From contig OZ244960.1 of assembly GCA_965222605.1 (NCBI GenBank), positions 2,816,001 to 2,880,000 on the forward strand: a stretch of DNA of 64,000 bases, given 5' to 3'. Of the stretch, positions 2,087 through 17,369 are shown piece after piece (the stretch's first letter is position 1; the number at the start of each line of letters is the position of its first letter). A program made the translations under genes and the position numbers. Source of the DNA: Candidatus Latescibacterota bacterium. GTDB lineage: Bacteria; Latescibacterota; UBA2968. The notes under the pieces were generated by a model. It saw nothing but the letters and a program-made list of their open reading frames with translations, had not been told where the DNA came from and made no database searches.

Positions 2087-2740
2087 ATGAACGTATTGAT
2101 CACCTCGGGCAAAACAGCATTAGCCCGGGCACTATCAGCGGATTTGGCAAAAGAGCACGAAATCGTATTGACGGATCTCGTGGATGTGGAAACAGATTGC
2201 GATTTTGTCAAATGTGAACTCGGGCACGAAGGAGAGACAGAAGCCCTCGTACAGGGAATGGATGCCATTGTACATCTCGCGGAATTGCCCGAAGAATTGA
2301 AAAGTGATGAACGGGAAATGGACTTTCAGACGCGGTGTACTTATAACATCATGCACGCAGCAAAAGAAAAAAACGTGCCGCATGTCGTCTTTATCAGTTC
2401 CCTGAGCTTATTCGCGTCCTGCGATCCCAACTGGAATGTCACAGAAGTCTGGGCACCGCGACCCTCGACAGAATCGGCACCTATGGCGCGCTACCTGGGT
2501 GAATTTACCTGCCGAGAATTTGCGCGAGAGCATTCGGTGCGCGTAACATGCTTGCGATTTGGAGACATAGACAGCAATGGCGACACAGCATTGACAACAG
2601 AAGACGCGGTAAAAGCCATTGGAAAAGCACTGGTAAAAAACGGTCCCATGTGGCAGATATTGCACATGCAATCAGAAGTTGCAAATGCTCGGTTCCCTAC
2701 AGACCAGGCAAAACAAGTATTGGGCCTTAACGAACAATAA
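2087..2740 (+). CDS. NAD-dependent epimerase/dehydratase family protein (degenerate motifs)
   Basis: MNVLITSG, DAIVHLA, VVFISS, CLRFG; YxxxK not evident. Confidence 0.7.
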   Translation: MNVLITSGKTALARALSADLAKEHEIVLTDLVDVETDCDFVKCELGHEGETEALVQGMDAIVHLAELPEELKSDEREMDFQTRCTYNIMHAAKEKNVPHVVFISSLSLFASCDPNWNVTEVWAPRPSTESAPMARYLGEFTCREFAREHSVRVTCLRFGDIDSNGDTALTTEDAVKAIGKALVKNGPMWQILHMQSEVANARFPTDQAKQVLGLNEQ

Positions 2741-2750
2741 TGAGGTCAAC

Positions 2751-3479
2751 ATGAAAGTCGTAATCTACGGAAGCAATGGCCAGTTAGGACCGCATGTGGT
2801 GAAAGCTCTGGAGGGACATGTAGATCTGCGCTTGACCGACCTGGAGCCATTTGACACACCGCACGAAATGATGATAGTAGATGTATCAGACCCCGATGCG
2901 GTCACACGCGCGGCAGAGGGAATGGATGCAATCATCAACCTATCGGTCTTGCGCCCCCACCGACAGATCGCCTTTGACGTAAATACCATGGGATGCTACA
3001 ACATCATGCGCGCAGCGGTTGAGCACGGTATCCCGCGGGTCATCAATACAGGACCGCATTTTACCGTACAGGGCGCACCTTATGAGGCATTGGATTACAA
3101 CATCGGTCCCGATGTCCCACCCAAACCCAGCACAAATCTGTACGCCCTATCCAAGGGCCTGGGTCAAGAAATCTGCCGAATCTTTACCGCGCAGAGCGAT
3201 GTCTATGTATTGTGTTACTTATTCTACATCTTCTGCTATCACGACGACCTGTCAAGACCCGGTCTAAACCGCCCGTTTCTCGTAACATGGCGAGATGCAT
3301 CAGCGGCATTCTTACCGGGCCTGACCATAGATCTCCAAACACTGCCATCGCAATGCGAAGTCTTCAACATCTTTGCAAACCGACCACACCAGAAATTCTC
3401 AAACGAAAAAGCAAAACGCATTCTGGGATGGCAGCCTAAGGATGACCTGGAGCATACGTATCTCAAATCCAACGTGTAA
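2751..3479 (+). CDS. NAD-dependent epimerase/dehydratase (uronate dehydrogenase-like)
   Basis: ATG at 2751 after GAGG; GSNGQLG Rossmann motif, YALSK catalytic motif, LGWQPK C-terminus. Confidence 0.8.
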   Translation: MKVVIYGSNGQLGPHVVKALEGHVDLRLTDLEPFDTPHEMMIVDVSDPDAVTRAAEGMDAIINLSVLRPHRQIAFDVNTMGCYNIMRAAVEHGIPRVINTGPHFTVQGAPYEALDYNIGPDVPPKPSTNLYALSKGLGQEICRIFTAQSDVYVLCYLFYIFCYHDDLSRPGLNRPFLVTWRDASAAFLPGLTIDLQTLPSQCEVFNIFANRPHQKFSNEKAKRILGWQPKDDLEHTYLKSNV

Positions 3480-3501
3480 ATAGTCAACCGGAGCAACTCC
3501 G

Positions 3502-4857
3502 ATGATTACCTCGATCCGCCTCGTAAATTTCAAAAACTTCGCCGACGAAACCCTGCGCGTAGGTCCATTTACGGTAATCGTAGGCGCAAACGCCAGCGGC
3601 AAGAGCAATATCCGCGACGCCTTCCGCTTCCTGCACGGCATAGGTCGTGGCTATACCCTGGCGGAGATTATCGGCGGAAAATACGGCTCGGATTGGGAAC
3701 CAATTCGCGGCGCTGGAAATGAGATTGCGCGATTTTGCCCTCCCTATATGCCGTCCGAATTCTCCCTTCATGTCGAACTAACGCTCTCAGGGATAAAGAC
3801 ATATTATTCGATTAAGGTCGGATTAAACCCAACAAATTCCGAAGGGTTCCGCGTATTAGAGGAAGAGCTAAGGACCGAATCCGCAATAATCTATACGACC
3901 ATGAAAACTTCCGAATCCGATCTCTGGTTGCAGGTAGGAGAGAATGGTGAAAGGCAGATCGGCCTTAGCCGGTCTCAACCGGCCCTCACTCAGTTTCTTC
4001 AGAAATACAAGGAGATATGGTACCAGCAAATATCCGACTTGGGCCTTCACTCTGTGCTTGAGAGTATGCGCTTTCTGGACCTGTCTCCAGACAGAATGCG
4101 AGAGGCTTCTTTCCCCGGTGCGAACAGGTTGGGCGATTTTGGTGAAAATTTGCCGACTGTATTGGAGGAAATTTGCACTGACCCCAAACGACAGAAGATT
4201 CTGACAAGTTGGGTACACGAACTCACGCCCATGGATGTACAGGGGTTCGAGTTCCCGCCTGATCCGAGTGGTCGAATTCATCTCATGCTCTGCGAGGCAA
4301 ACGGCAGAAAGGTGTCCGCCGATAGCGCGTCAGACGGCACCTTGCGTTTTCTCGCCATGCTGGCCACGCTACTCGGCAAATATTCCGAGGGCCTATATTT
4401 CTTTGAAGAAATCGACACTGGTATTCACCCAACACGGCTGCATTTATTAATGGACTTGATTGAAGGGCAAACCGCGAAGCAAGGTATTCAGGTAATCACC
4501 ACGACCCATGCGCCAACCCTATTGACTGTAATGAACGATCATACGTTCGAGAACACATCCATAGTGTGCCGGCTGGAAGACTCTTCCGATGCTATTATCC
4601 GCCCGGTTGTCGATCTTCCCAATGTGCGGGAACTGCGGCAGGATCAAGGGCTGGGACGGTTACATGAATCTGGATGGATGGAGAACGCGCTTTATTTCAC
4701 CGAAGACTACGACGAAAAGGACTTCGTTGCAGTTGACCGGCTCCGAGATAAGATGAGGAACAATGATCCCGATTACGTCGAAACACAGATTGTGAAAGCT
4801 GTTGCTGAGGTCAAGGCCAATTCAGGAGACACCAGTGCCATTTGTCGCCCATTATAA
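3502..4857 (+). CDS. ABC-type AAA ATPase (AAA_21/AAA_15-like, defence-associated class) with foreign-looking C-terminal tail
   Basis: NFKNF, Walker A GANASGKSN, signature SASDGTLR, Walker B FFEEIDTGIHP, H-loop TTHAP. Confidence 0.8.
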   Translation: MITSIRLVNFKNFADETLRVGPFTVIVGANASGKSNIRDAFRFLHGIGRGYTLAEIIGGKYGSDWEPIRGAGNEIARFCPPYMPSEFSLHVELTLSGIKTYYSIKVGLNPTNSEGFRVLEEELRTESAIIYTTMKTSESDLWLQVGENGERQIGLSRSQPALTQFLQKYKEIWYQQISDLGLHSVLESMRFLDLSPDRMREASFPGANRLGDFGENLPTVLEEICTDPKRQKILTSWVHELTPMDVQGFEFPPDPSGRIHLMLCEANGRKVSADSASDGTLRFLAMLATLLGKYSEGLYFFEEIDTGIHPTRLHLLMDLIEGQTAKQGIQVITTTHAPTLLTVMNDHTFENTSIVCRLEDSSDAIIRPVVDLPNVRELRQDQGLGRLHESGWMENALYFTEDYDEKDFVAVDRLRDKMRNNDPDYVETQIVKAVAEVKANSGDTSAICRPL

Positions 4858-5241
4858 AGGATGCTTGTGTAGCAACTTCTGCACTACCCACTAAAGCGAA
4901 GTAACTCCACATGACTCAGATGTGCAAGAATTATCTGAAGCGATTCACAACATGCCTGATTTAACAGAGAAAGAAATAGATCTTCAACGCCAAAGATATC
5001 GTCAAATGTATGAGGTCAGGGCGCATCATTGAATTAAAGCGTGAACTGACCTGGACCAGTTGTACCCCGTCCCCAATGCAGGTTCTTGCCGATTATGCCC
5101 CGATGCCGTAATTTGTTAAAAAGGCCGCAATTGCCTATACTACGGAAACTCGAGTTGATTGATGACGGCACCATTTGACTCGGTCCAGGATTGAGAATCT
5201 GATAATCGTATTATTTATATTAGTATATAGCGGAGACAAAC

Positions 5242-6951
5242 ATGGCACTTCATAGTGCTGAGCAAAACGTCGCGAACAAGCAGCCATTGAGTGCTCTGGT
5301 AGCGGATCCCACTTACCGCGAAATTTCGCGGATCAATCCTCGCCGTCTCCTGGGGGCGTACTACACCCCCGACGCACTCGCAAGTATTTTGGCAACATGG
5401 GCACTCGCACCTGGGAAGGGCAATGTCCTGGATCCGAGCTTTGGCGGGTGTGCATTCCTTAATGCGGCAACGACTATCCTGGCCTCCAGAGGTGTTTCAG
5501 AGCCTGGTAAGCGGGTCTTCGGCGTTGATGTGGACCCAACGTGTATGGAGTATGTACTCAAGGATCAAAATCTCATTGAGAAGAACTGCATTATTCAAGA
5601 CTTTCTCAGCTTGTCTCCGAAGGATATACCCGGGGCACCCTTTCACGCCATAACCGGCAATCCTCCCTACGTGCGTCACCACTGGTTTAATGGAACGACC
5701 CGAAAGGCAGGCCGGGCAGCCATGGCCGACGCCGGAGTGGCACTTCCCGATACAGCGAGCGCCTGGGCGTATTTTTTGGTCCACACACTGAGCTTTATCG
5801 CGAAGAACGGCCGGCTCGCAATGCTTGTTCCGGAAGCGATCCTTCAGGCTGACTACGCCACTATCGTCAGGGACTTGCTCACATCCCGTTTCGATCATGT
5901 TTGTCTGGTTCACATTCGCGACCGTCTATTTGAAGGTACAGACGAAGCCGTGGTCGCAGTCGCCGCTTCGCAATATGGTGGTAAAAGAGGCACCTTGCGC
6001 GTTGAAGCTGTCGAGCGATCCGAGGATTTAGCAGCTGTCCTGGACACCCCAAAAGGCGGGAGTTCTACTTCCCATTTGACAACCCCAAAAGGTCGCCGCA
6101 TTGACTCGCTGACTGTCCAATTGCTCGGTGAATTGGAGCAACATTCTGCAGTCCAAAAGGTCTCCGATGTCGCAACCGTGAGGATTGGTTTGGTCACAGG
6201 TGCCAATAAATACTTCATCCGTAATGCCAAAAATCTGAAACAAATCGGTGTTCCTCACGAGTCCTGGGTACGACTAATTTCTCGTACGCGATGGCTATCA
6301 GGACTGGATTTCACCAAAGAAGATCTCCAAAAACTCGTTGAAGCTGACCAACAGGCCATCCTGGTTCGGCCCACACTGGCGTGCGAAAATGCTCCCGGCA
6401 TCAAGCAGTGGATTGACGAGGGAATTGAGGCCGATGTTCACGAGCGATATAAATGCACCATACGCGATCCCTGGTTTCGTGTCGATCTAAAGCCCGTACC
6501 AGACGCCTTCGCCACATGCGCCCGTATGAGTGCTCCCTTGCTCGTTCTCAACCGGGTTGGTTGCCAATGTACCAATGCACTCCATGCCATGTATTTGCAT
6601 TGCGGAAGCGATGCCTCTCTACCTGCCATCGCTGTGGGGTTCCTCACGAGTGCCGTGAGTGTCTGGGCAGAACTCCACGGACGTCGGTACGGAGGAGGCG
6701 TCTTGAAGATGGAACCCGGCACGCTGAATAAAACGCCGGTACCAATAATTCAGGACGCGGAAGATGCCTTTGATGAATTGAATAAACTCATTCGAGATGG
6801 GCGAGAAACCGAAGCAAGAGAACTGGCGGACAATCTCGTTCTTGGAGATCTATTGGGCTTACCAAAGAAAGATATTCAGCGATTACAGCAGGCACACATC
6901 CAGTTGATGATCCAACGCCGACCCACCAGAAATGGAACCAACCATGGCTAA
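5242..6951 (+). CDS. N6-adenine-type DNA methyltransferase (gamma-class order, TaqI/Eco57I-like) with C-terminal TRD region
   Basis: GAYYTP (motif X), VLDPSFGGCAFL (motif I), GVDVD, GNPPY (motif IV), RIGLVTGANKYF, GRRYGGGVLKMEP. Confidence 0.88.
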   Translation: MALHSAEQNVANKQPLSALVADPTYREISRINPRRLLGAYYTPDALASILATWALAPGKGNVLDPSFGGCAFLNAATTILASRGVSEPGKRVFGVDVDPTCMEYVLKDQNLIEKNCIIQDFLSLSPKDIPGAPFHAITGNPPYVRHHWFNGTTRKAGRAAMADAGVALPDTASAWAYFLVHTLSFIAKNGRLAMLVPEAILQADYATIVRDLLTSRFDHVCLVHIRDRLFEGTDEAVVAVAASQYGGKRGTLRVEAVERSEDLAAVLDTPKGGSSTSHLTTPKGRRIDSLTVQLLGELEQHSAVQKVSDVATVRIGLVTGANKYFIRNAKNLKQIGVPHESWVRLISRTRWLSGLDFTKEDLQKLVEADQQAILVRPTLACENAPGIKQWIDEGIEADVHERYKCTIRDPWFRVDLKPVPDAFATCARMSAPLLVLNRVGCQCTNALHAMYLHCGSDASLPAIAVGFLTSAVSVWAELHGRRYGGGVLKMEPGTLNKTPVPIIQDAEDAFDELNKLIRDGRETEARELADNLVLGDLLGLPKKDIQRLQQAHIQLMIQRRPTRNGTNHG

Positions 6952-9268
6952 GCTCACTGTTGACACCCACTTGTTCCGAGAACTCGGGGAACTACTGGTC
7001 GGGCGCGACTCCACAGCCTTGATCGAACTGATCAAGAACGCCTACGACGCCGATGCGACCGAGGTCACTGTATATGGTGAGCGCCTCAATAATCCAGAAG
7101 AGGGACATATCCTGGTAATAGACGACGGCGTGGGCATGAATGCGGAAGCGTTCACGAAGGGATTTCTGCGGATTGCTTCGCGTCTAAAGGAGCAAGGGGA
7201 GCGGCGGTCCGCCCTGTTTCAACGCCGTTACACCGGTGCGAAGGGAATTGGTCGGCTTGCCGCTCATAAGCTCGCGAGAAAACTTGAAGTTGACAGCGTG
7301 CCACGATTCGCCGAATCGGATGGGATTCGAGAAGCTCTGAACGCCACAATAGATTGGGACAAAATCGAGCAGTACGAAACCCTGGATGACCTTGACTCTA
7401 CCGATGCGATTCTTCTGGAAACGAAGACGATACGCAAGAACGCTCATTCAGGAACGACACTTCTTCTATCGCAACTGCGAAAAGCTTGGACTGAGACTGA
7501 GCGTGCGAGGTTTTTTGCCGAGGTTCAATCGTTCGATCCTCCCTCATTTCTACGTGAGCCGCTCCCGCGATCAATTATCGAAAAGACACTGCTGTTTGAC
7601 ACACCAGTTATGCGAGACCAGGGTTCCGATGCTGTTGCTCCTCCATTCCAAGTGAACCTTGAAGGGGACTTTGCTGCTGGCGAGGACTACTTGGCACTTG
7701 TTGCCGAAGTCGCGACCTGGGTACTGGAGATACAGGCGGTTCCCGGCAGCGATGAAGTGCATTTTGCCGTCGCACCAACGAAGAGTAATCGAGAGGATAA
7801 TCCGGAAGCGGGAGAATTCAAGCAGTCGATCCCCCATCCCACTCCTGATAAAGGTCCGCATTTTGAGGCTCGCATCCTGATCCGAGAAGGGCATTTTAGG
7901 AGGCGCACGGATCAGCGGGTGTGGGGGACGCACGTCAGCGGGATCCGAGTTTATATGGAAGGATTCCGCGTCTTACCCTATGGAGATCAAAAGGACGACT
8001 GGCTCTCGATTGACGCTGATTATACGAGGCGCCCACGACAACTCGAGATGCTTGAAAAACTCCGTCTCGGTGTGGAAACGATGGACCCTGATGAGGGTCT
8101 CACCCGCATGCCGAGTAACAATTACTTTGGCGCGATTTTTCTTACCCAGGAACGTTGTCCCAGTCTGCGCGTTCTTGTGAACCGTGAGGGATTTATTCCA
8201 GAGGCCGGATTCGACACATTAGTGCATCTTGTGCGGACAGGTATTGATCTTTGTACGCGAGCAAGGGCAGCAGCGGGTTATGCCCGCCGCCAACAAAGGA
8301 GAGAAGACCGCCGTCGAGAATCAAAGGCTATAATGGATCAAACGGGTAGGGTTGAAGCTGATGATACTACGGACGAGTCCCCTGAGACGCATGAATTGCC
8401 CAATCGGCTTCAAGATGTGACTCAACTCCTGAAAGAAGCTCGCGAGCGCCTCAACGAAGGAGATACTAAGAAAGCCAAGGTCGCAGTCAGCGCAGCCATG
8501 CAAAAGCACGGTGGAACGCCGGAACTTGCTGCGGACCTGTGGTCCGAACGCTCACTCTTACATGTCCTAGCGTCCGTGGGTACGCAGATGGCGGCTTTCG
8601 TGCATGAGATCAATGCCTTGCTGGGAGCGGCGCAAACTATCGAGTACGCTCTGGAGCGTCTACTCAAAGAGGGAGGGTTGTCTCGCGAACAGCGACGGAG
8701 CCTTAGGCTAATATTGACGGTCACAGTGGATTTGAAGCGTGGATTGGAACGCCAGGCTGCTTACCTGATAGATATCGAAACTCCCGATGCTCGCCGCCGC
8801 CGGTCTCGACAGCGTTTATGTGAACGTTTCGACGCCGCGGTTCGTCTCGTACAGCATCAAGCAGAACGCCGAGGCATCAAAATTGATAACCAAATTCCAC
8901 CCGAATTGAGGTCTCCCCCGATGTTTTCCGCCGAGCTTACAGCGATATTCGCCAATCTCCTGACAAATGCGGTTAAAGCCGCTGGAGAGGATGGACATAT
9001 CTTCGCTTCAGCATCCAGTGCAGATGATCAAGTTCGAATTCGCATCCAGAACACCGGCACTGCTGTCCAACTCGGTGAGGCCGAGCACTGGTTCAAACCC
9101 TTCCAGTCAACAACATCTGTAGTAAACCCCGTGCTGGGCCAAGGAATGGGGCTGGGACTGACCATTACACGGAACCTGTTGGAGAACTATGGAGCAGTTG
9201 TGAAATTCGTCCAACCAGATAGCCCGTTTAAAACTGCTATCGAAATAGCCTTGCCAAATAGGAGTTAA
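6944..9268 (+). CDS. MORC-like GHKL ATPase fused to C-terminal histidine kinase
   Basis: ELIKNAYDADA, DDGVGM, GAKGIGRL, SGTTL (GHKL); GFRVLPYG/NREGF middle region; H-box FVHEIN, N-box NLLTNAVKA, F-box FKPF, G2 GMGLGL; ATG overlaps MTase stop. Confidence 0.85.
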   Translation: MAKLTVDTHLFRELGELLVGRDSTALIELIKNAYDADATEVTVYGERLNNPEEGHILVIDDGVGMNAEAFTKGFLRIASRLKEQGERRSALFQRRYTGAKGIGRLAAHKLARKLEVDSVPRFAESDGIREALNATIDWDKIEQYETLDDLDSTDAILLETKTIRKNAHSGTTLLLSQLRKAWTETERARFFAEVQSFDPPSFLREPLPRSIIEKTLLFDTPVMRDQGSDAVAPPFQVNLEGDFAAGEDYLALVAEVATWVLEIQAVPGSDEVHFAVAPTKSNREDNPEAGEFKQSIPHPTPDKGPHFEARILIREGHFRRRTDQRVWGTHVSGIRVYMEGFRVLPYGDQKDDWLSIDADYTRRPRQLEMLEKLRLGVETMDPDEGLTRMPSNNYFGAIFLTQERCPSLRVLVNREGFIPEAGFDTLVHLVRTGIDLCTRARAAAGYARRQQRREDRRRESKAIMDQTGRVEADDTTDESPETHELPNRLQDVTQLLKEARERLNEGDTKKAKVAVSAAMQKHGGTPELAADLWSERSLLHVLASVGTQMAAFVHEINALLGAAQTIEYALERLLKEGGLSREQRRSLRLILTVTVDLKRGLERQAAYLIDIETPDARRRRSRQRLCERFDAAVRLVQHQAERRGIKIDNQIPPELRSPPMFSAELTAIFANLLTNAVKAAGEDGHIFASASSADDQVRIRIQNTGTAVQLGEAEHWFKPFQSTTSVVNPVLGQGMGLGLTITRNLLENYGAVVKFVQPDSPFKTAIEIALPNRS

Positions 9269-9276
9269 CTGTACTC

Positions 9277-10413
9277 ATGAAAAATACTGAGAAGCCATCC
9301 ATTCTTGTCATTGATGATGAACCTGACGAACTGCGTAATAAATTCAATCTATGGCTAGGTGAACACGCAGCACCTCCTGTATTTCATCCTCAAGATGTAG
9401 AAAGATCGGACTTGAATAATGCTGATCTGGTTCTGGTGGACTATGCGCTGGAATACTGGTCGGAACGGGATAATCTATCGACCATTTCACTCCAGCCAAC
9501 AAACGGAATGGCTCTTGCGGTTGTATTACGGGAACAAGTGGACGAAAATGAAAGAGACAAATTAACAGCATTTGCGCTACATACGGCTTATCTCGGAAAT
9601 ATTAAGGGACGATTTTCACCTGCGACTGCCCAACATGTTCTTGCGCGCTTGAACAATCTGGAATGGATATTCCCAAAGACGAATCCTGATAGCTATAACC
9701 AGATGCTTCTTCTTGCGAACGCTGTCCGGAAGCTTCCAGGTCAATGGTCGGAAGATTCGGATGACTCGATTTCAATGGTGCAACAACTTCTCGATATGGA
9801 TGAGGACGACGAATCGTTTGAGCGCTGCTGGCAAGACGTTAAAGATTGCCGGGTGCCAATTGAAGAGTTGACCGTGGATGGACACGGCATCCTGTTCATT
9901 CGATGGTTGCTTCATCAAGTATTGCCGTATCCCTCCTTTTTGTGGGCAGAGCACTGGGTTGCGGCGCGCCTTGGGATTTCCATTGATGCCCTGCGTGAGG
10001 TCCTGGAGGGAGATAGCGATCTGGCGAAAGACTTGGAGTCCATGCTCTATTCTGGAATTCTCGAGGGGTTTTTGGGAAATATGTGGTGGCGTGGTGCTAT
10101 TGAGGACTATGCTTGGAATCTATCAGAAGGACACACGGCTGATGTACAACATTTGCGAGATGTTTTGTCCGAGCGTGCCGGAATGAAACTGAAGCCAATT
10201 GACGTCAACCCCGCGGTGGTTTGCGTGGATAAGAATTGGCAACCCACCGACGAGTTCCTATCGCCAATGACTGCCATAACCCTCCACCCCGACCACTGGC
10301 CTCCGTTTGCTGACCCAGCCTGGATGGACATCGAAACTGTGCAAAATGACGATACTCTGTTGCCGTTGGTGAATCCCCTTGACCAGCACCGCATCGTGAG
10401 TAACAAAGAATAG
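9277..10413 (+). CDS. Response-regulator receiver domain plus ~250-aa unknown C-terminal domain
   Basis: ILVIDDE, LVLVDY (phosphoacceptor Asp), NGMAL, LHTAY, IFPK; starts 8 nt after kinase stop. Confidence 0.75.
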   Translation: MKNTEKPSILVIDDEPDELRNKFNLWLGEHAAPPVFHPQDVERSDLNNADLVLVDYALEYWSERDNLSTISLQPTNGMALAVVLREQVDENERDKLTAFALHTAYLGNIKGRFSPATAQHVLARLNNLEWIFPKTNPDSYNQMLLLANAVRKLPGQWSEDSDDSISMVQQLLDMDEDDESFERCWQDVKDCRVPIEELTVDGHGILFIRWLLHQVLPYPSFLWAEHWVAARLGISIDALREVLEGDSDLAKDLESMLYSGILEGFLGNMWWRGAIEDYAWNLSEGHTADVQHLRDVLSERAGMKLKPIDVNPAVVCVDKNWQPTDEFLSPMTAITLHPDHWPPFADPAWMDIETVQNDDTLLPLVNPLDQHRIVSNKE

Positions 10414-10423
10414 GACGGCAAGA

Positions 10424-11146
10424 ATGGCGGGGTTTCGCTTTCTTTTTTCTGAACTTGTCCAAGAGACCAAAGTGATGGCAACATTGTCAGAGGAGTTCCT
10501 CGATCCGAATAGGATATGGGTTCTCTCTCGTTTCTTGAGCCACCTCCGAAGCATTGGTGGGAAACCCGAAGAAAGCGTTTATCCTCTGGAGCTTCGATGC
10601 CTTCGCACAATACCAAGCAATCAGTACGACAGAAAAGCAGGTAAAGAGATATATGCGGTTATTTCAGGAATTTGGGAACTGCAACCATGGGGGAAGCGCT
10701 CAGATCCGGATCGCGAGATAGAATTCTGCGGAAAAGCTTCAACGAAGATCAAGTTGTACGCTTCTGACGATTCTAAGACGAAGACACGCTTAGCAATGTG
10801 GAGTCTGGAACTGGGTGCTGAGGACAGTCCTGGCTGTTATGTCCACGCTCATATTCTCGGGGACACCGTTGATCCGCGGTTCCCGAAATCAGTTCCCATT
10901 CCCAGATTGCCCAGCCTTTTCGTCACTCCGATGAGTGCTGTAGAGTTCGTCCTCGGCGAACTCTTCCAGAACGATTGGCCTGAGGTGACCTCCAAAAAGC
11001 GTTACGAAGTGTTTGAGTGGCATAAGCTCCAAAAAAAGTGGCTTCAGCAACTGTTCTCATGGTACCAAGACCAAATAGAGAAGGCGGGTTCCTTTCCGTG
11101 GATAGCATTAAAGAAGGCGAAGCCAGAAGACGGCATGTTTCTCTGA
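10424..11146 (+). CDS. Hypothetical protein with HxH motif, last gene of the MTase-HK-REC operon
   Basis: 240 aa ORF 10 nt after REC gene with AGGA RBS; PGCYVHAHILG...IPRLPSLFVTPMSAVEFVLGELF. Confidence 0.7.
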   Translation: MAGFRFLFSELVQETKVMATLSEEFLDPNRIWVLSRFLSHLRSIGGKPEESVYPLELRCLRTIPSNQYDRKAGKEIYAVISGIWELQPWGKRSDPDREIEFCGKASTKIKLYASDDSKTKTRLAMWSLELGAEDSPGCYVHAHILGDTVDPRFPKSVPIPRLPSLFVTPMSAVEFVLGELFQNDWPEVTSKKRYEVFEWHKLQKKWLQQLFSWYQDQIEKAGSFPWIALKKAKPEDGMFL

Positions 11147-11212
11147 AAATTCAGAAGACGGAGGCCGTGACGGAGACGAGCGATAAACATAATCTCAGAT
11201 ACCTTATCGATG

Positions 11213-11241
11213 AAATCCGCAGGTCTGATCCTGCGGGTTTT
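11213..11241 (+). terminator. Intrinsic terminator of the island operon
   Basis: AAATCCGCAGG / CCTGCGGGTTTT stem with short T run. Confidence 0.6.
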
Positions 11242-11273
11242 AGTATTCAGGTAGAGTTCGCATCTTTCGTGTG

Positions 11274-11340
11274 AAGACCAATCAAGATCATTAGCTGATT
11301 GGTCTTAATTTTTGGGTATAATGCCATTTATACTCAAAAA
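11274..11340. repeat. Two further inverted repeats: AAGACCAATCA/TGATTGGTCTT and TTTGGGTATAA-N6-TTATACTCAAA
   Basis: Perfect 11-bp IR at 11274-11306; 10/11 palindrome with 6-nt spacer at 11311-11338. Confidence 0.7.
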
Positions 11341-11474
11341 CACCATTGCAAACCCCTGTTTTCGCGCTTAAATTGCAGATAGTTATAGCTGAATTCTGAC
11401 ATGGTTCGTATCTCCGCACATCTGCTGCCATTTCTCACCAATAGTCACAACTCCTGTCATAAGGAGGACAGAAA

Positions 11475-12704
11475 ATGAAAATTCGACCCGACCTCGTCCC
11501 GGAAACCGAGCGAAACAACCTCGAAGTCATCCAACTCACGGATGAATCGATCCCCTCATCACACATCTACATGGAAGCGCAGATATTCACACCCGATTCC
11601 CAACGACTGATCCTTCACCGGTCTGCCCATCCGCACGGCTCTGATCCAAAGGACCCGGAGCACCAGTTCCTCATCTGCGACCTCGAAGACCATTGCAGCT
11701 TGACGCCAATCACCACCGAACTCGGAACCACGGGACCATCCATCTCACCAGACGGCGAATGGCTTTACTACTTCGTCAATGAAACAGAGCCTGGAGGCGG
11801 ACAGCTAACGCTCAAGCGCGTCAAAATGGACGGAACAGAACGCGACATCATCTATGTCCTGGACCACGCGATTCCGGACACCGATTTCAGGTTGAGCCGA
11901 CCGTATCCGCTTTCGACAATCTCATCCGACGGCAAGCGCATCGCAATCTCGGGATTCCTCGGCGACGGCAAAACCGCAGGCGCACCCTGGGGACTTCTCG
12001 TCTTTGAAATTGAGGACCCATCCGTACGCCTGATCTTTCAGGGGCCCTCCTGGTGCAATATACACCCACAATACACGCGCCAGACAGACCCCGAGGGCAC
12101 CCATGACATCATGATCCAGGAAAACCACGGAAACACCGCATCAACCGACGGCAGCATAGAAACGCTCGTCAGCGGGCGGGGTGCAGACATCCACGTAATC
12201 CGGGACGACGGCACGGCACTGCGCGATTTTCCCTGGGGACGGGACGGAAACGAATTCTGCCAGGGACATCAATGCTGGCAGGGACAAAGCGACATCGCCA
12301 TTACGAGCACAAGCACACGCGAACCCGCTGAAAGACAACTCATCTCGGGACGCGCCGCGGATCACATCGGAGATGAAGGCATCAACACACCGGGCGGATG
12401 GCGAAACGACCTGTCCCGATCCTTCGACGCGCCCGACTTCTGCCACTTCGCAACTGACATCAACGGGAAACGGCTGATCACGGACGCAGGTCCAATAGAT
12501 GCGGGCGGAGCCGTCTGGCTATTCGATCTCCCCGAAGAAGACAAAGGTGCGCTCGCAAATGCGCGGAAAGTCGCGGACCCCGGATCATCCTGGCAAAAAC
12601 ATACGCACATCCATCCCTTTCTATCCCCAGATGGACGATCGGGCTTCTTCAACTCCGATGAAAGCGGCATACTACAGGCGTATATGGTGCGCGGTTGGTC
12701 TTAA
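11475..12704 (+). CDS. TolB/oligogalacturonate-lyase-like beta-propeller protein
   Basis: HIYMEAQIFTPDSQRL, SPDGEWLYY, HIHPFLSPDG; AAGGAGGA RBS. Confidence 0.65.
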   Translation: MKIRPDLVPETERNNLEVIQLTDESIPSSHIYMEAQIFTPDSQRLILHRSAHPHGSDPKDPEHQFLICDLEDHCSLTPITTELGTTGPSISPDGEWLYYFVNETEPGGGQLTLKRVKMDGTERDIIYVLDHAIPDTDFRLSRPYPLSTISSDGKRIAISGFLGDGKTAGAPWGLLVFEIEDPSVRLIFQGPSWCNIHPQYTRQTDPEGTHDIMIQENHGNTASTDGSIETLVSGRGADIHVIRDDGTALRDFPWGRDGNEFCQGHQCWQGQSDIAITSTSTREPAERQLISGRAADHIGDEGINTPGGWRNDLSRSFDAPDFCHFATDINGKRLITDAGPIDAGGAVWLFDLPEEDKGALANARKVADPGSSWQKHTHIHPFLSPDGRSGFFNSDESGILQAYMVRGWS

Positions 12705-16916: not shown

Positions 16917-17369
16917 TTGAGAAAATGGCCTGAATTTGACAATAACGGTGATCTGCCTGTAGGCATTCATCGGGCGACATTGCCTGAAGTGCTACAACAT
17001 TTTGGAACGGGAACAGTACAGCGACATCTTGTTGGACAACGACTGGAACGCATTTATAATCTGGCCCTCGGAACAGGACAGATGGCGAGATTTATCGTAT
17101 TTGGTTCCTTCGTTACGGCAAAACCTTCTCCCGAGGATGTCGATATCTTTATGATGATGGAAGATTCGTTTGATGTCAACCAGGTAAGTAATGAGGCAGC
17201 TATCATTTTTGACCATCAGGCGGTGCAAAATGTGATAGGTGCAAGTGTTTTCTGGATTCGACGACTGGCCGCAATTGGCGGGGAACGGGAAGCCCTGGAG
17301 TACTGGCAGATAAAACGAGACAAAACGCGACGTGGAATCGTGGAGGTGATCAGCGATGATTCGGAATAA
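16917..17369 (+). CDS. Minimal nucleotidyltransferase-like protein (DUF6932-like)
   Basis: GDLPVGIH N-terminus; FGSFVTAKPSPEDVDI = GS...DxD pol-beta-like motif. Confidence 0.7.
   Translation: MRKWPEFDNNGDLPVGIHRATLPEVLQHFGTGTVQRHLVGQRLERIYNLALGTGQMARFIVFGSFVTAKPSPEDVDIFMMMEDSFDVNQVSNEAAIIFDHQAVQNVIGASVFWIRRLAAIGGEREALEYWQIKRDKTRRGIVEVISDDSE

Follow-up and report, generated by a model that had tools for sequence, protein, structure and literature searches.

A candidate phosphorelay-gated, restriction-modification-like defence cassette in a Latescibacterota bacterium

What is the role of four closely packed genes which encode a DNA methylase, a protein with two ATP-binding modules, a receiver protein and a small protein of no annotated family, and which lie together in the genome of Candidatus Latescibacterota bacterium? 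We addressed this question on the window, that is, the whole stretch of 64,000 nt which was analysed (OZ244960.1, positions 2,816,001 to 2,880,000 of the forward strand); all coordinates given below are window positions. The answer at which we arrived, and to which we give a probability of roughly 0.6, is that the four genes constitute a phosphorelay-gated defence system which resembles restriction-modification (R-M) and is a variant of the Ambrosia system, with gene 4 as its effector. This answer is built on what we observed of the cassette, namely the identities of its domains, its intact catalytic residues, the linkage of its genes, its mobility and its presence in defence islands and on plasmids.

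All four genes are on the + strand: gene 1, an Eco57I-type N6-adenine methylase of 569 aa (5242..6951); gene 2, a MORC-like GHKL ATPase joined to a histidine-kinase core (open reading frame (ORF) 6932-9268); gene 3, a receiver-domain protein of 378 aa (9277..10413); and gene 4, a soluble protein of 240 aa from an unannotated family, which is the candidate effector (10424..11146). In an alignment of gene 2 with its homologues, the latter begin at the residue which matches the ATG at 6944; hence 6944 is the likely start of gene 2, and genes 1 and 2 overlap by 8 nt. With intergenic gaps of 8 nt between genes 2 and 3 and of 10 nt between genes 3 and 4, the tight co-oriented arrangement reported in a first-pass annotation of this DNA is borne out.

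Judged by its sequence, gene 1 belongs to the Eco57I type of gamma-class N6-adenine DNA methyltransferases and has a C-terminal target-recognition domain of its own. It matches the Pfam families N6_Mtase (2.1e-16), M_Eco57I_C (2.9e-21) and Eco57I (2.1e-06) as well as the PADLOC model MTase_II (8e-91), and its resemblance to the methylases PglX of BREX and MAD2 of MADS is weak. Motif I reads DPSFGG (aa 64-69), and the NPPY motif stands at aa 140-143 (5659-5670, + strand); the form NPP[YF] is retained in 11/11 assessable partner methylases of related loci. Methylases of the Eco57I type modify one strand of asymmetric sites.

Gene 2, whose residues are counted from 6932, carries two ATP-binding modules, HATPase_c_3 at residues 28-172 (5.8e-18) and HATPase_c at residues 668-775 (8.6e-20). 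The motifs ExxxNAxDA, DxGxG and GxxGxG of the N-terminal GHKL module are intact, in the form of ELIKNAYDA (32-40), DxGxG (64-69) and GAKGIGRLA (102-110). Two central motifs, EGFRVLPYG (343-351) and VNREGF (416-421), probably belong to an S5-like transducer of the kind found in MORC/MutL-type ATPases. The kinase core has its H-box histidine at His558 (8603-8605), its N-box at 675-683, its G1 box at 706-711, with Asn for the usual Asp, and its G2 box at 736-743. These motifs are invariant in 13/13 homologues. Among PDB sequences, gene 2 matches the DHp-CA part of ZraS (8.6e-09) and the GHKL module of human MORC2 (5.9e-04); the helix which contains His558-Glu lines up with the histidine which accepts the phosphate in ZraS, and the core also has its N, F and G2 boxes. 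The N-terminus also matches the PADLOC REase_II models, and the NCBIfam model NF050001 (BbrUII/HgiDII restriction enzyme) matches through positions 2-176 only, at 3.9e-23, which is below its cut-off. No window of 19 residues in gene 2 reaches a Kyte-Doolittle value of 1.6, so that no transmembrane segment is expected; genes 3 and 4 likewise have no segment hydrophobic enough for a membrane helix. The Pfam matches and the hydrophobicity scan thus agree with the earlier description of gene 2 as a protein with two ATP-binding modules and without a transmembrane sensor. The N-terminal GHKL module retains its Asp, unlike the G1 box of the kinase core.

No family was matched by the sequence of gene 3 in Pfam, PADLOC and NCBIfam scans, even when Pfam was searched at E <= 10. 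In its predicted structural model, residues 4-159 adopt the receiver fold, with Asp13, Asp14, Thr103 and Lys134 around the phospho-acceptor Asp55 (9439-9441). Asp13-Asp14, Asp55 and Lys134 are invariant in 18 homologues of gene 3, down to 26% identity, while position 103 is Thr or Ser in all of them. According to this model, then, gene 3 has a complete receiver domain with an intact phospho-accepting Asp. The sequence retains the catalytic residues of the methylase, of the two ATPases, of the H-box (His) and of the receiver (Asp), in support of the first-pass annotation.

The remaining 220 residues of gene 3 (aa ~160-378) contain the motifs RWLLHQVLPYP (209-219), AARLGIS (229-235), RWWR (269-272) and PDxWP (338-342). 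AARLGIS sits between two predicted helices and looks like part of a helix-turn-helix (HTH). A search of the ESM Atlas with residues 160-378 gave no usable match, a profile search with the gene 3 alignment against PDB sequences gave nothing usable, and Pfam, PADLOC and NCBIfam scans found no known effector domain in the tail. The core of the tail (aa ~184-290) is nevertheless common to distant receiver partners, as hhalign aligns it with those of Hymenobacter (E 4.6e-05), Paraburkholderia (1.4e-04) and Halomicrobium (6.6e-04). On these alignments, the tail appears to be a conserved output domain of a wider receiver family. It had been proposed that the cassette holds two uncharacterised effectors; this is now doubtful, since the tail of gene 3 is found throughout the family and only the fourth slot varies. 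A prediction of the complex between genes 3 and 4 scored 0.00, which carries no weight for or against binding.

Gene 4 belongs to a large family: a profile search collected 557 clusters (at 50% identity) at E <= 0.001, of which 324 at E <= 1e-30, and the best 150 of the 557 are, without exception, stand-alone proteins 169-294 residues long. Among 171 aligned sequences, His141 (10844-10846) is found in 171/171, Arg161 is invariant and Glu179 is found in 170/171; 31 positions have a commonest residue at 85% or more, and Cys138 and position 143 fall short of this. Position 143 is His in the window and a nearly invariant Gln in a smaller alignment of 23 sequences (A4). Gene 4 had first been called an HxH protein, a name which fits the copy of the window only and not the family, as position 143 is not conserved. 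No HNH, Vsr or other Pfam match was obtained with gene 4 and 22 relatives, and a profile search with its alignment against PDB sequences gave nothing usable. Our literature search, which left most subscription journals outside its coverage, found no description of the gene 4 family or of this variant of the cassette.

Two identities were considered for gene 4 and rejected. The Atlas lists for it one cluster, at 0.87, 15% of whose members carry DUF2290; with six DUF2290 proteins from related genomes, hhalign gave E 0.35 and 0.18, which is not significant, and this identity was therefore dropped. Gene 4 also has a G-C-aromatic-x-H stretch reminiscent of the Vsr motif; Cys138 is conserved below 85%, no Vsr family is matched and no Vsr structure appears among the fold matches. 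One further sequence must be mentioned here: in P0183 (363 aa, on a contig of 2020 bases), a gene 2 relative breaks off after ~163 residues and continues in frame as a gene 4 relative, whose part starts at about residue 51 and has Tyr in place of the invariant His141. It is a deletion remnant of a decayed cassette and not a functional fusion.

Do these genes belong together? We collected 17 loci anchored on relatives of gene 3, on 4 contigs of species genomes and 13 metagenome contigs. Gene 2 is the immediate upstream neighbour of gene 3 in 15/15 loci where the contig is long enough to show it (L019 and L026 begin within gene 3), and a relative of gene 4 lies downstream in 15/15 assessable loci (L017 and L024 end inside gene 3), 14 of them recognised by BLAST and one, L028, by hhalign at E 2.8e-08. 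An Eco57I-type methylase adjoins this triad in 13/17 loci: upstream in 7, downstream in 5, and downstream on the opposite strand in 1. The other 4 loci are decayed or on contigs which are too short. Methylases on the downstream side retain NPP[YF] but share only 23.8-28.9% identity with gene 1, which means that the methylase has moved or has been swapped while the association was kept. The synteny called for at the outset is thus present as a recurrent triad of kinase, receiver and gene 4, with the methylase before or after it. As a proxy of co-location, 49/120 listed clusters of gene 4 share the exact size of their longest contig with a listed cluster of gene 3. One short locus (L027, 3734 bases), which is among the 14 recognised by BLAST, is a decayed copy of the cassette, with gene 2 in two pieces, a partial gene 3 and the gene 4 relative on the opposite strand.

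Named relatives come from metagenome-assembled genomes of Poribacteria, Gemmatimonadota and Latescibacterota, and from plasmids. On the Rhizobium plasmid pTH2c, a methylase stands with relatives of gene 2 (40.8% identical), of gene 3 (E 4.2e-39) and of gene 4 (E 1.8e-10), while the Clavibacter plasmid pCCa holds a methylase, gene 2 and gene 3 (E 2e-48), followed by an unrelated fourth protein of 193 aa. More distant pairs of kinase and receiver are found on plasmids of Hymenobacter, of Paraburkholderia and of the archaeon Halomicrobium; the fourth proteins of the first two are unrelated to gene 4, and for Halomicrobium none is annotated. On a Bacteroides plasmid, a kinase and a short receiver are accompanied by an HNH nuclease and an Eco57I-type methylase. 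When plasmids were searched by tblastn, with gene 2 as one query and the Paraburkholderia kinase as the other, no Pseudomonas record was among the matches listed (for gene 2, the best 25 of 125). By these sequence comparisons, what is constant is the kinase together with a receiver bearing an output domain; of the methylase, the kind is constant, and the fourth slot is variable. The pair of kinase and receiver is an old and widely transferred chassis, present in at least 6 named phyla, plasmids and one haloarchaeal plasmid included, with an exchangeable fourth gene and a conserved output domain on the receiver.

The cassette is mobile and horizontally inserted, and both plasmids and defence islands carry it. 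Members of the gene 3 family are present in 6/168 genomes of the phylum and in 4/20 other genomes of the genus. In the window, the cassette and an upstream ATPase gene form a variable insert (3480..11474) between a gene of the epimerase family (2679-3479) and a PD40-repeat gene (11475-12704). These two flanking genes are 5-8 nt apart at 10 sites of the same genus (G073, where the empty site is at G073:C1:4449800-4451900 (L038), G074, G076, G079, G080, G081, G086, G087, G090 and a second copy in G072), and 6.4-11.2 kb apart where a relative of gene 3 is present (the genome of the window, G000, and G072, G078, G083 and G084). In two further genomes they are 3.7 kb (G077) and 1.95 kb (G089) apart and hold other cargo, so that the site is occupied in 7 genomes by ~2 to 11 kb of varied defence-type cargo. 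G072 holds one empty and one occupied copy of the locus, which may come from a duplication or from a mixture of strains (estimated contamination of this genome, 6%).

The upstream gene of the insert (3502-4857) encodes an ABC-type ATPase (AAA_21/AAA_15) which matches the PADLOC defence candidate PDC-M07A at 1.3e-63. The cargo in G077 and G089 consists of the same PDC-M07A-like ATPase followed by a partner of 187-188 aa, of which neither a trace nor a remnant was found in the window. Since the cargo includes this ATPase, we regard the junction of the epimerase-family and PD40 genes as a small defence hotspot. The earlier statement that the cassette sits among unrelated metabolic genes holds in part, but not for its upstream neighbour. 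Elsewhere, relatives of the cassette neighbour BrxL, TIR with HsdS, a Schlafen-type helicase, transposases, a UvrD-like helicase and a fusion of reverse transcriptase (RT) and trypsin; in Rhizobium the cassette is followed by a GIY-YIG/DUF4357 gene, which is a separate single-gene candidate in PADLOC (PDC-S14). The Hymenobacter plasmid region (L031, 231-5868 and 13449-14903) is a dense defence island: on one side of the distant cassette is a Piwi-domain (pAgo) gene along with a large DNA methyltransferase, and on the other a Schlafen AlbA_2 / HATPase_c_4 protein. Empty and occupied sites, plasmids and recurrent linkage all agree with the view of a conserved mobile unit of four genes.

Systems built in a similar way have been published. 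The closest is Ambrosia (AbrR-AbrA-AbrB-AbrC-AbrD), a validated anti-phage system of Pseudomonas aeruginosa described by van den Berg et al. (10.1101/2025.09.30.679545), which comprises a HipB-like XRE regulator, an N6 methylase, a HATPase kinase, a receiver with a wHTH (winged helix-turn-helix) and a type IV HNH protein. In that preprint, all five proteins are needed, the receiver mutation D60A abolishes defence, and expression at the methylase and nuclease positions rises on infection; phage from cells with AbrA only stays sensitive, and the authors conclude that Ambrosia is not a conventional type II R-M system. The likeness lies in the combination, within one operon, of an N6-adenine methylase, a kinase/HSP90-like ATPase, a receiver with a phospho-accepting Asp and a small fourth protein. 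Gene 1 fits as the counterpart of AbrA (Pfam N6_Mtase/Eco57I, NPPY); gene 2 fits AbrB by its architecture of two HATPase domains and an H-box, the comparison being made by description only; and gene 3 has the receiver fold and Asp55 of an AbrC counterpart, its tail showing an HTH-like motif where AbrC has a recognised wHTH. Ambrosia is reported only from Gammaproteobacteria, whereas the family of the cassette extends over Latescibacterota, Poribacteria, Gemmatimonadota, Alphaproteobacteria and Actinomycetota. Systems of the Ambrosia type join epigenetic marking to two-component signalling.

A second precedent is the family of kinases with HATPase_c_3, HEF_HK (PF19191) and HATPase_c domains which Bellieny-Rabelo et al. 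(2021; PMC8011034) found near R-M genes; a receiver-like protein (Response_reg_2, PF19192) accompanies these kinases in 91.6% of 644 regions. Common neighbours are C5 methylases, Vsr (immediately after the receiver-like gene) and HNH_2, the most frequent nuclease domain; the authors trace the family back to paraMORC ATPases and propose, without experiments, a regulation linked to R-M and a sensing of nucleoside triphosphates (NTP). The cassette shares with this module a soluble kinase of the type HATPase_c_3, DHp and HATPase_c, an adjacent receiver gene, after which a nuclease gene often follows in the published module, and a linked DNA methylase. It differs by its methylase, N6-adenine of the Eco57I type instead of C5-cytosine, and by having no Vsr. 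The Paraburkholderia kinase matches the 2021 Pfam kinase model weakly (E 0.0079), a PF19191 scan of the genome of the window gave sub-threshold matches only, outside gene 2, and a second search for homologues of gene 3 returned close relatives only and no connection to PF19192.

The N-terminal GHKL module of gene 2 and the R-M-like operon also recall the paraMORC ATPases and the BbrUII/HgiDII enzymes. The paraMORC ATPases of R-M operons were defined by Iyer et al. (2008; PMC2292703), who proposed that they link recognition and cleavage sites. In gene 2 the GHKL motifs are intact and an S5 domain is suggested by the central motifs, but where paraMORC3 has a C-terminal endonuclease domain gene 2 has a histidine-kinase core; the output would therefore be a phosphoryl signal and not cleavage. 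It had been taken as established that MORC-type ATPases occur fused to histidine kinases beside receiver proteins. This is the case in the 2021 survey (PMC8011034), but not in the 2008 paper (PMC2292703), which does not mention a kinase fusion and in which a term search found 'receiver' 0 times.

Detocs (DtcA-DtcB-DtcC; Rousset et al., 10.1101/2023.01.24.525353), in which a transfer from His to Asp triggers an anti-phage effector, is a precedent for the relay: H645A and D58A each abolish defence, and a buffer protein is needed against autoimmunity. It shares with the proposed system the His-to-Asp trigger and the exchangeable effector part. Detocs has TPR sensors, an effector fused to the receiver (DtcC), a second receiver as buffer (DtcB) and no methylase, whereas the cassette has a GHKL module and only one receiver gene, whose tail holds no known effector domain. 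The idea of a phosphorelay-gated defence therefore has direct precedents in Detocs and Ambrosia, while for the present cassette such a function is a presumption drawn from analysis. To call it an undescribed system, as was first done, is too strong, since the architecture of kinase, receiver and methylase is already known (PMC8011034; 10.1101/2025.09.30.679545); what is new is gene 4 in the slot of the nuclease, and the lack of a regulator and of an HNH protein.

The anti-phage function, the phosphotransfer, the signal sensed, the role of methylation and the chemistry of gene 4 are matters which we infer, in the form of the following scheme. Gene 2 would be the sensor, its N-terminal MORC-like GHKL module, which related restriction enzymes carry in front of a nuclease domain, monitoring the DNA or the state of infection. 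Its kinase core would autophosphorylate on His558 and pass the phosphate to Asp55 of gene 3. Phosphorylated gene 3 may then activate the system through its conserved output domain with the HTH-like motif, either by raising transcription of the operon, as has been proposed for AbrC, or by a direct effect on a partner. Gene 1 would methylate adenine at an asymmetric site, and gene 4, which occupies the slot of the HNH (or Vsr) nucleases of sister systems, would be the effector which stops the invader. It is conceivable, though less likely than not, that gene 4 is a new enzyme fold serving as the phosphorelay-controlled effector in place of the HNH protein of Ambrosia, either as a new type of nuclease or as a protein switched by the receiver through a phosphoryl group. 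If gene 4 is the effector, then it represents a new type of effector, from a large unannotated family without a fold relative.

Several results weigh against the reading of the cassette as an Ambrosia-like defence system. The likeness to Ambrosia is one of architecture and not of sequences compared with AbrB and AbrC; the HNH nuclease AbrD is replaced by a protein from a family without known fold, and no counterpart of the XRE regulator AbrR was found in the cassette. Neither gene 2 against PF19191 nor gene 3 against PF19192 gave any match, even at E <= 10. In 13/13 homologues the G1 box of gene 2 reads (Q/E)NTG, with Asn at the position of the adenine-contacting Asp, and the autokinase activity is therefore not assured; this conserved change in the kinase pocket raises the question of which nucleotide the kinase core uses. 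The HTH of the gene 3 tail is a reading of the sequence and of predicted helices only, and the region upstream of gene 1 has no inverted repeat which would mark an operator. Structure searches with the predicted model of gene 4 found no fold relative among 48,161 representative PDB chains, so that its role as effector is argued from its position. Family scans recognised no restriction endonuclease, nuclease or toxic domain anywhere in the cassette, in agreement with what had been reported earlier for restriction endonucleases, and no relative of gene 3 was found on viral contigs.

The same observations can be read otherwise. In a classical R-M system, gene 1 would mark self, the GHKL clamp would detect unmethylated DNA or a loss of methylation, and the relay would license gene 4 as a new endonuclease. 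The cognate endonuclease of a type II system is not recognised in the cassette and gene 4 could be one, as restriction endonucleases are notoriously difficult to spot by their sequence; the methylase is moreover linked to the triad and catalytically intact, and the N-terminus of gene 2 matches both the GHKL head of BbrUII/HgiDII and the REase_II models. The one-strand modification by Eco57I-type methylases, on the other hand, makes a simple marking of self harder, and gene 4 conserves His, Arg and Glu without the acidic cluster typical of metal-dependent nucleases, its predicted model showing no known nuclease fold. The proposal that paraMORC ATPases link recognition and cleavage sites (PMC2292703) would suit such a system, but in Ambrosia, the sole tested relative of this architecture, methylation gave phage no protection (10.1101/2025.09.30.679545). 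On balance we hold a classical R-M system to be unlikely.

More doubtful still is a role of gene 4 as an accessory of the relay (as a phosphatase, as a sink for phosphate after the manner of DtcB, or as a phospho-acceptor by way of its His), the output then being gene 3 together with the clamp of gene 2, in a non-nucleolytic exclusion like that of BREX. The invariant His of gene 4, with Arg and Glu, suits phosphoryl chemistry as well as hydrolysis, Detocs requires its buffer protein (10.1101/2023.01.24.525353), the core of the gene 3 tail is common to receivers with other fourth genes, which suggests a common output in gene 3, and the weak likeness of gene 1 to PglX and MAD2 points the same way. 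However, gene 4 is unlike receivers, HPt, CheX/CheC and other phosphorelay accessories in fold searches, and sister systems hold true nucleases in the slot, HNH on the Bacteroides plasmid and Vsr or HNH_2 in the 2021 regions (PMC8011034); the Halomicrobium record, whose gene table is incomplete, shows no fourth gene by the receiver gene. The least probable account, to which we give very little credit, is a mobile epigenetic regulator or addiction module, where kinase and receiver control the methylase according to a cue from within the cell, for instance the NTP pool, and where persistence is selfish and not a matter of defence. It agrees with the speculation of the 2021 authors on a regulatory R-M role with NTP sensing (PMC8011034), with the HTH-like motif in gene 3 and with the fact that several species of the genus keep the cassette at a single chromosomal site. 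It is opposed by the repeated occurrence of the cassette among defence genes and on plasmids, by a patchy distribution typical of defence cargo, and by the protection against phage which Ambrosia, of the same architecture, confers (10.1101/2025.09.30.679545).

Some features of the surrounding sequence remain to be reported. A hairpin with a U-run at 11211..11242 (+ strand), seen in the RNA fold, has -20.7 kcal/mol and z -4.13, and 0/200 shuffles are as stable. We regard it as terminator-like and as closing the operon, as had been noted before, although a consensus terminator scan does not list it. The AT skew is -0.02 to 0.12 in 5001-11000 against 0.10-0.26 for the flanking genes, which bears out the remark that the composition of the cassette is unlike that of its neighbours. 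Promoter-like sites are no commoner than in shuffles, and in an alignment of upstream regions conservation is limited to three near-identical loci. A gene like AbrR was looked for between 4857 and 5242, where there is no ORF of at least 80 aa and where open stretches in the three + frames do not exceed 54 codons; the flanking genes match no HTH family.

A weak hint that the cassette is expressed, with DNA carry-over in the libraries being possible, comes from contigs of two metatranscriptome libraries from two studies, which are 90-95% alike to the window and come from relatives. Two of these contigs span the junction of genes 1 and 2 (1299 nt, 5866-7164, and 2818 nt, 6370-9193) and one lies over gene 4 (10609-11107). 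The whole of gene 3 and other parts of the cassette are without contig cover in the libraries (X1 and X2), which is not evidence of silence.

In the flank of the insert, the adjacent ORFs 2087-2740 and 2679-3479 overlap, and each gives a match to the N-terminal portion of the NAD-dependent epimerase family; in several genomes of the genus, the match to the ORF 2679-3479 contains in-frame TAG or TGA stops. Downstream of a cassette of the same genus (L004, 12306-13472, - strand) lies a fusion of 388 aa between a reverse transcriptase and a trypsin-like protease. Pairs of a helicase and a DUF2290 protein (Helicase-DUF2290 in PADLOC) are found in 13/168 genomes of the phylum (L039-L044), some of them adjoining a type I restriction subunit, and none is found in the genome of the window. 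Finally, a lone DUF6932 protein of 150 aa (16917-17369, 5.2e-26) stands among metabolic genes of the window.

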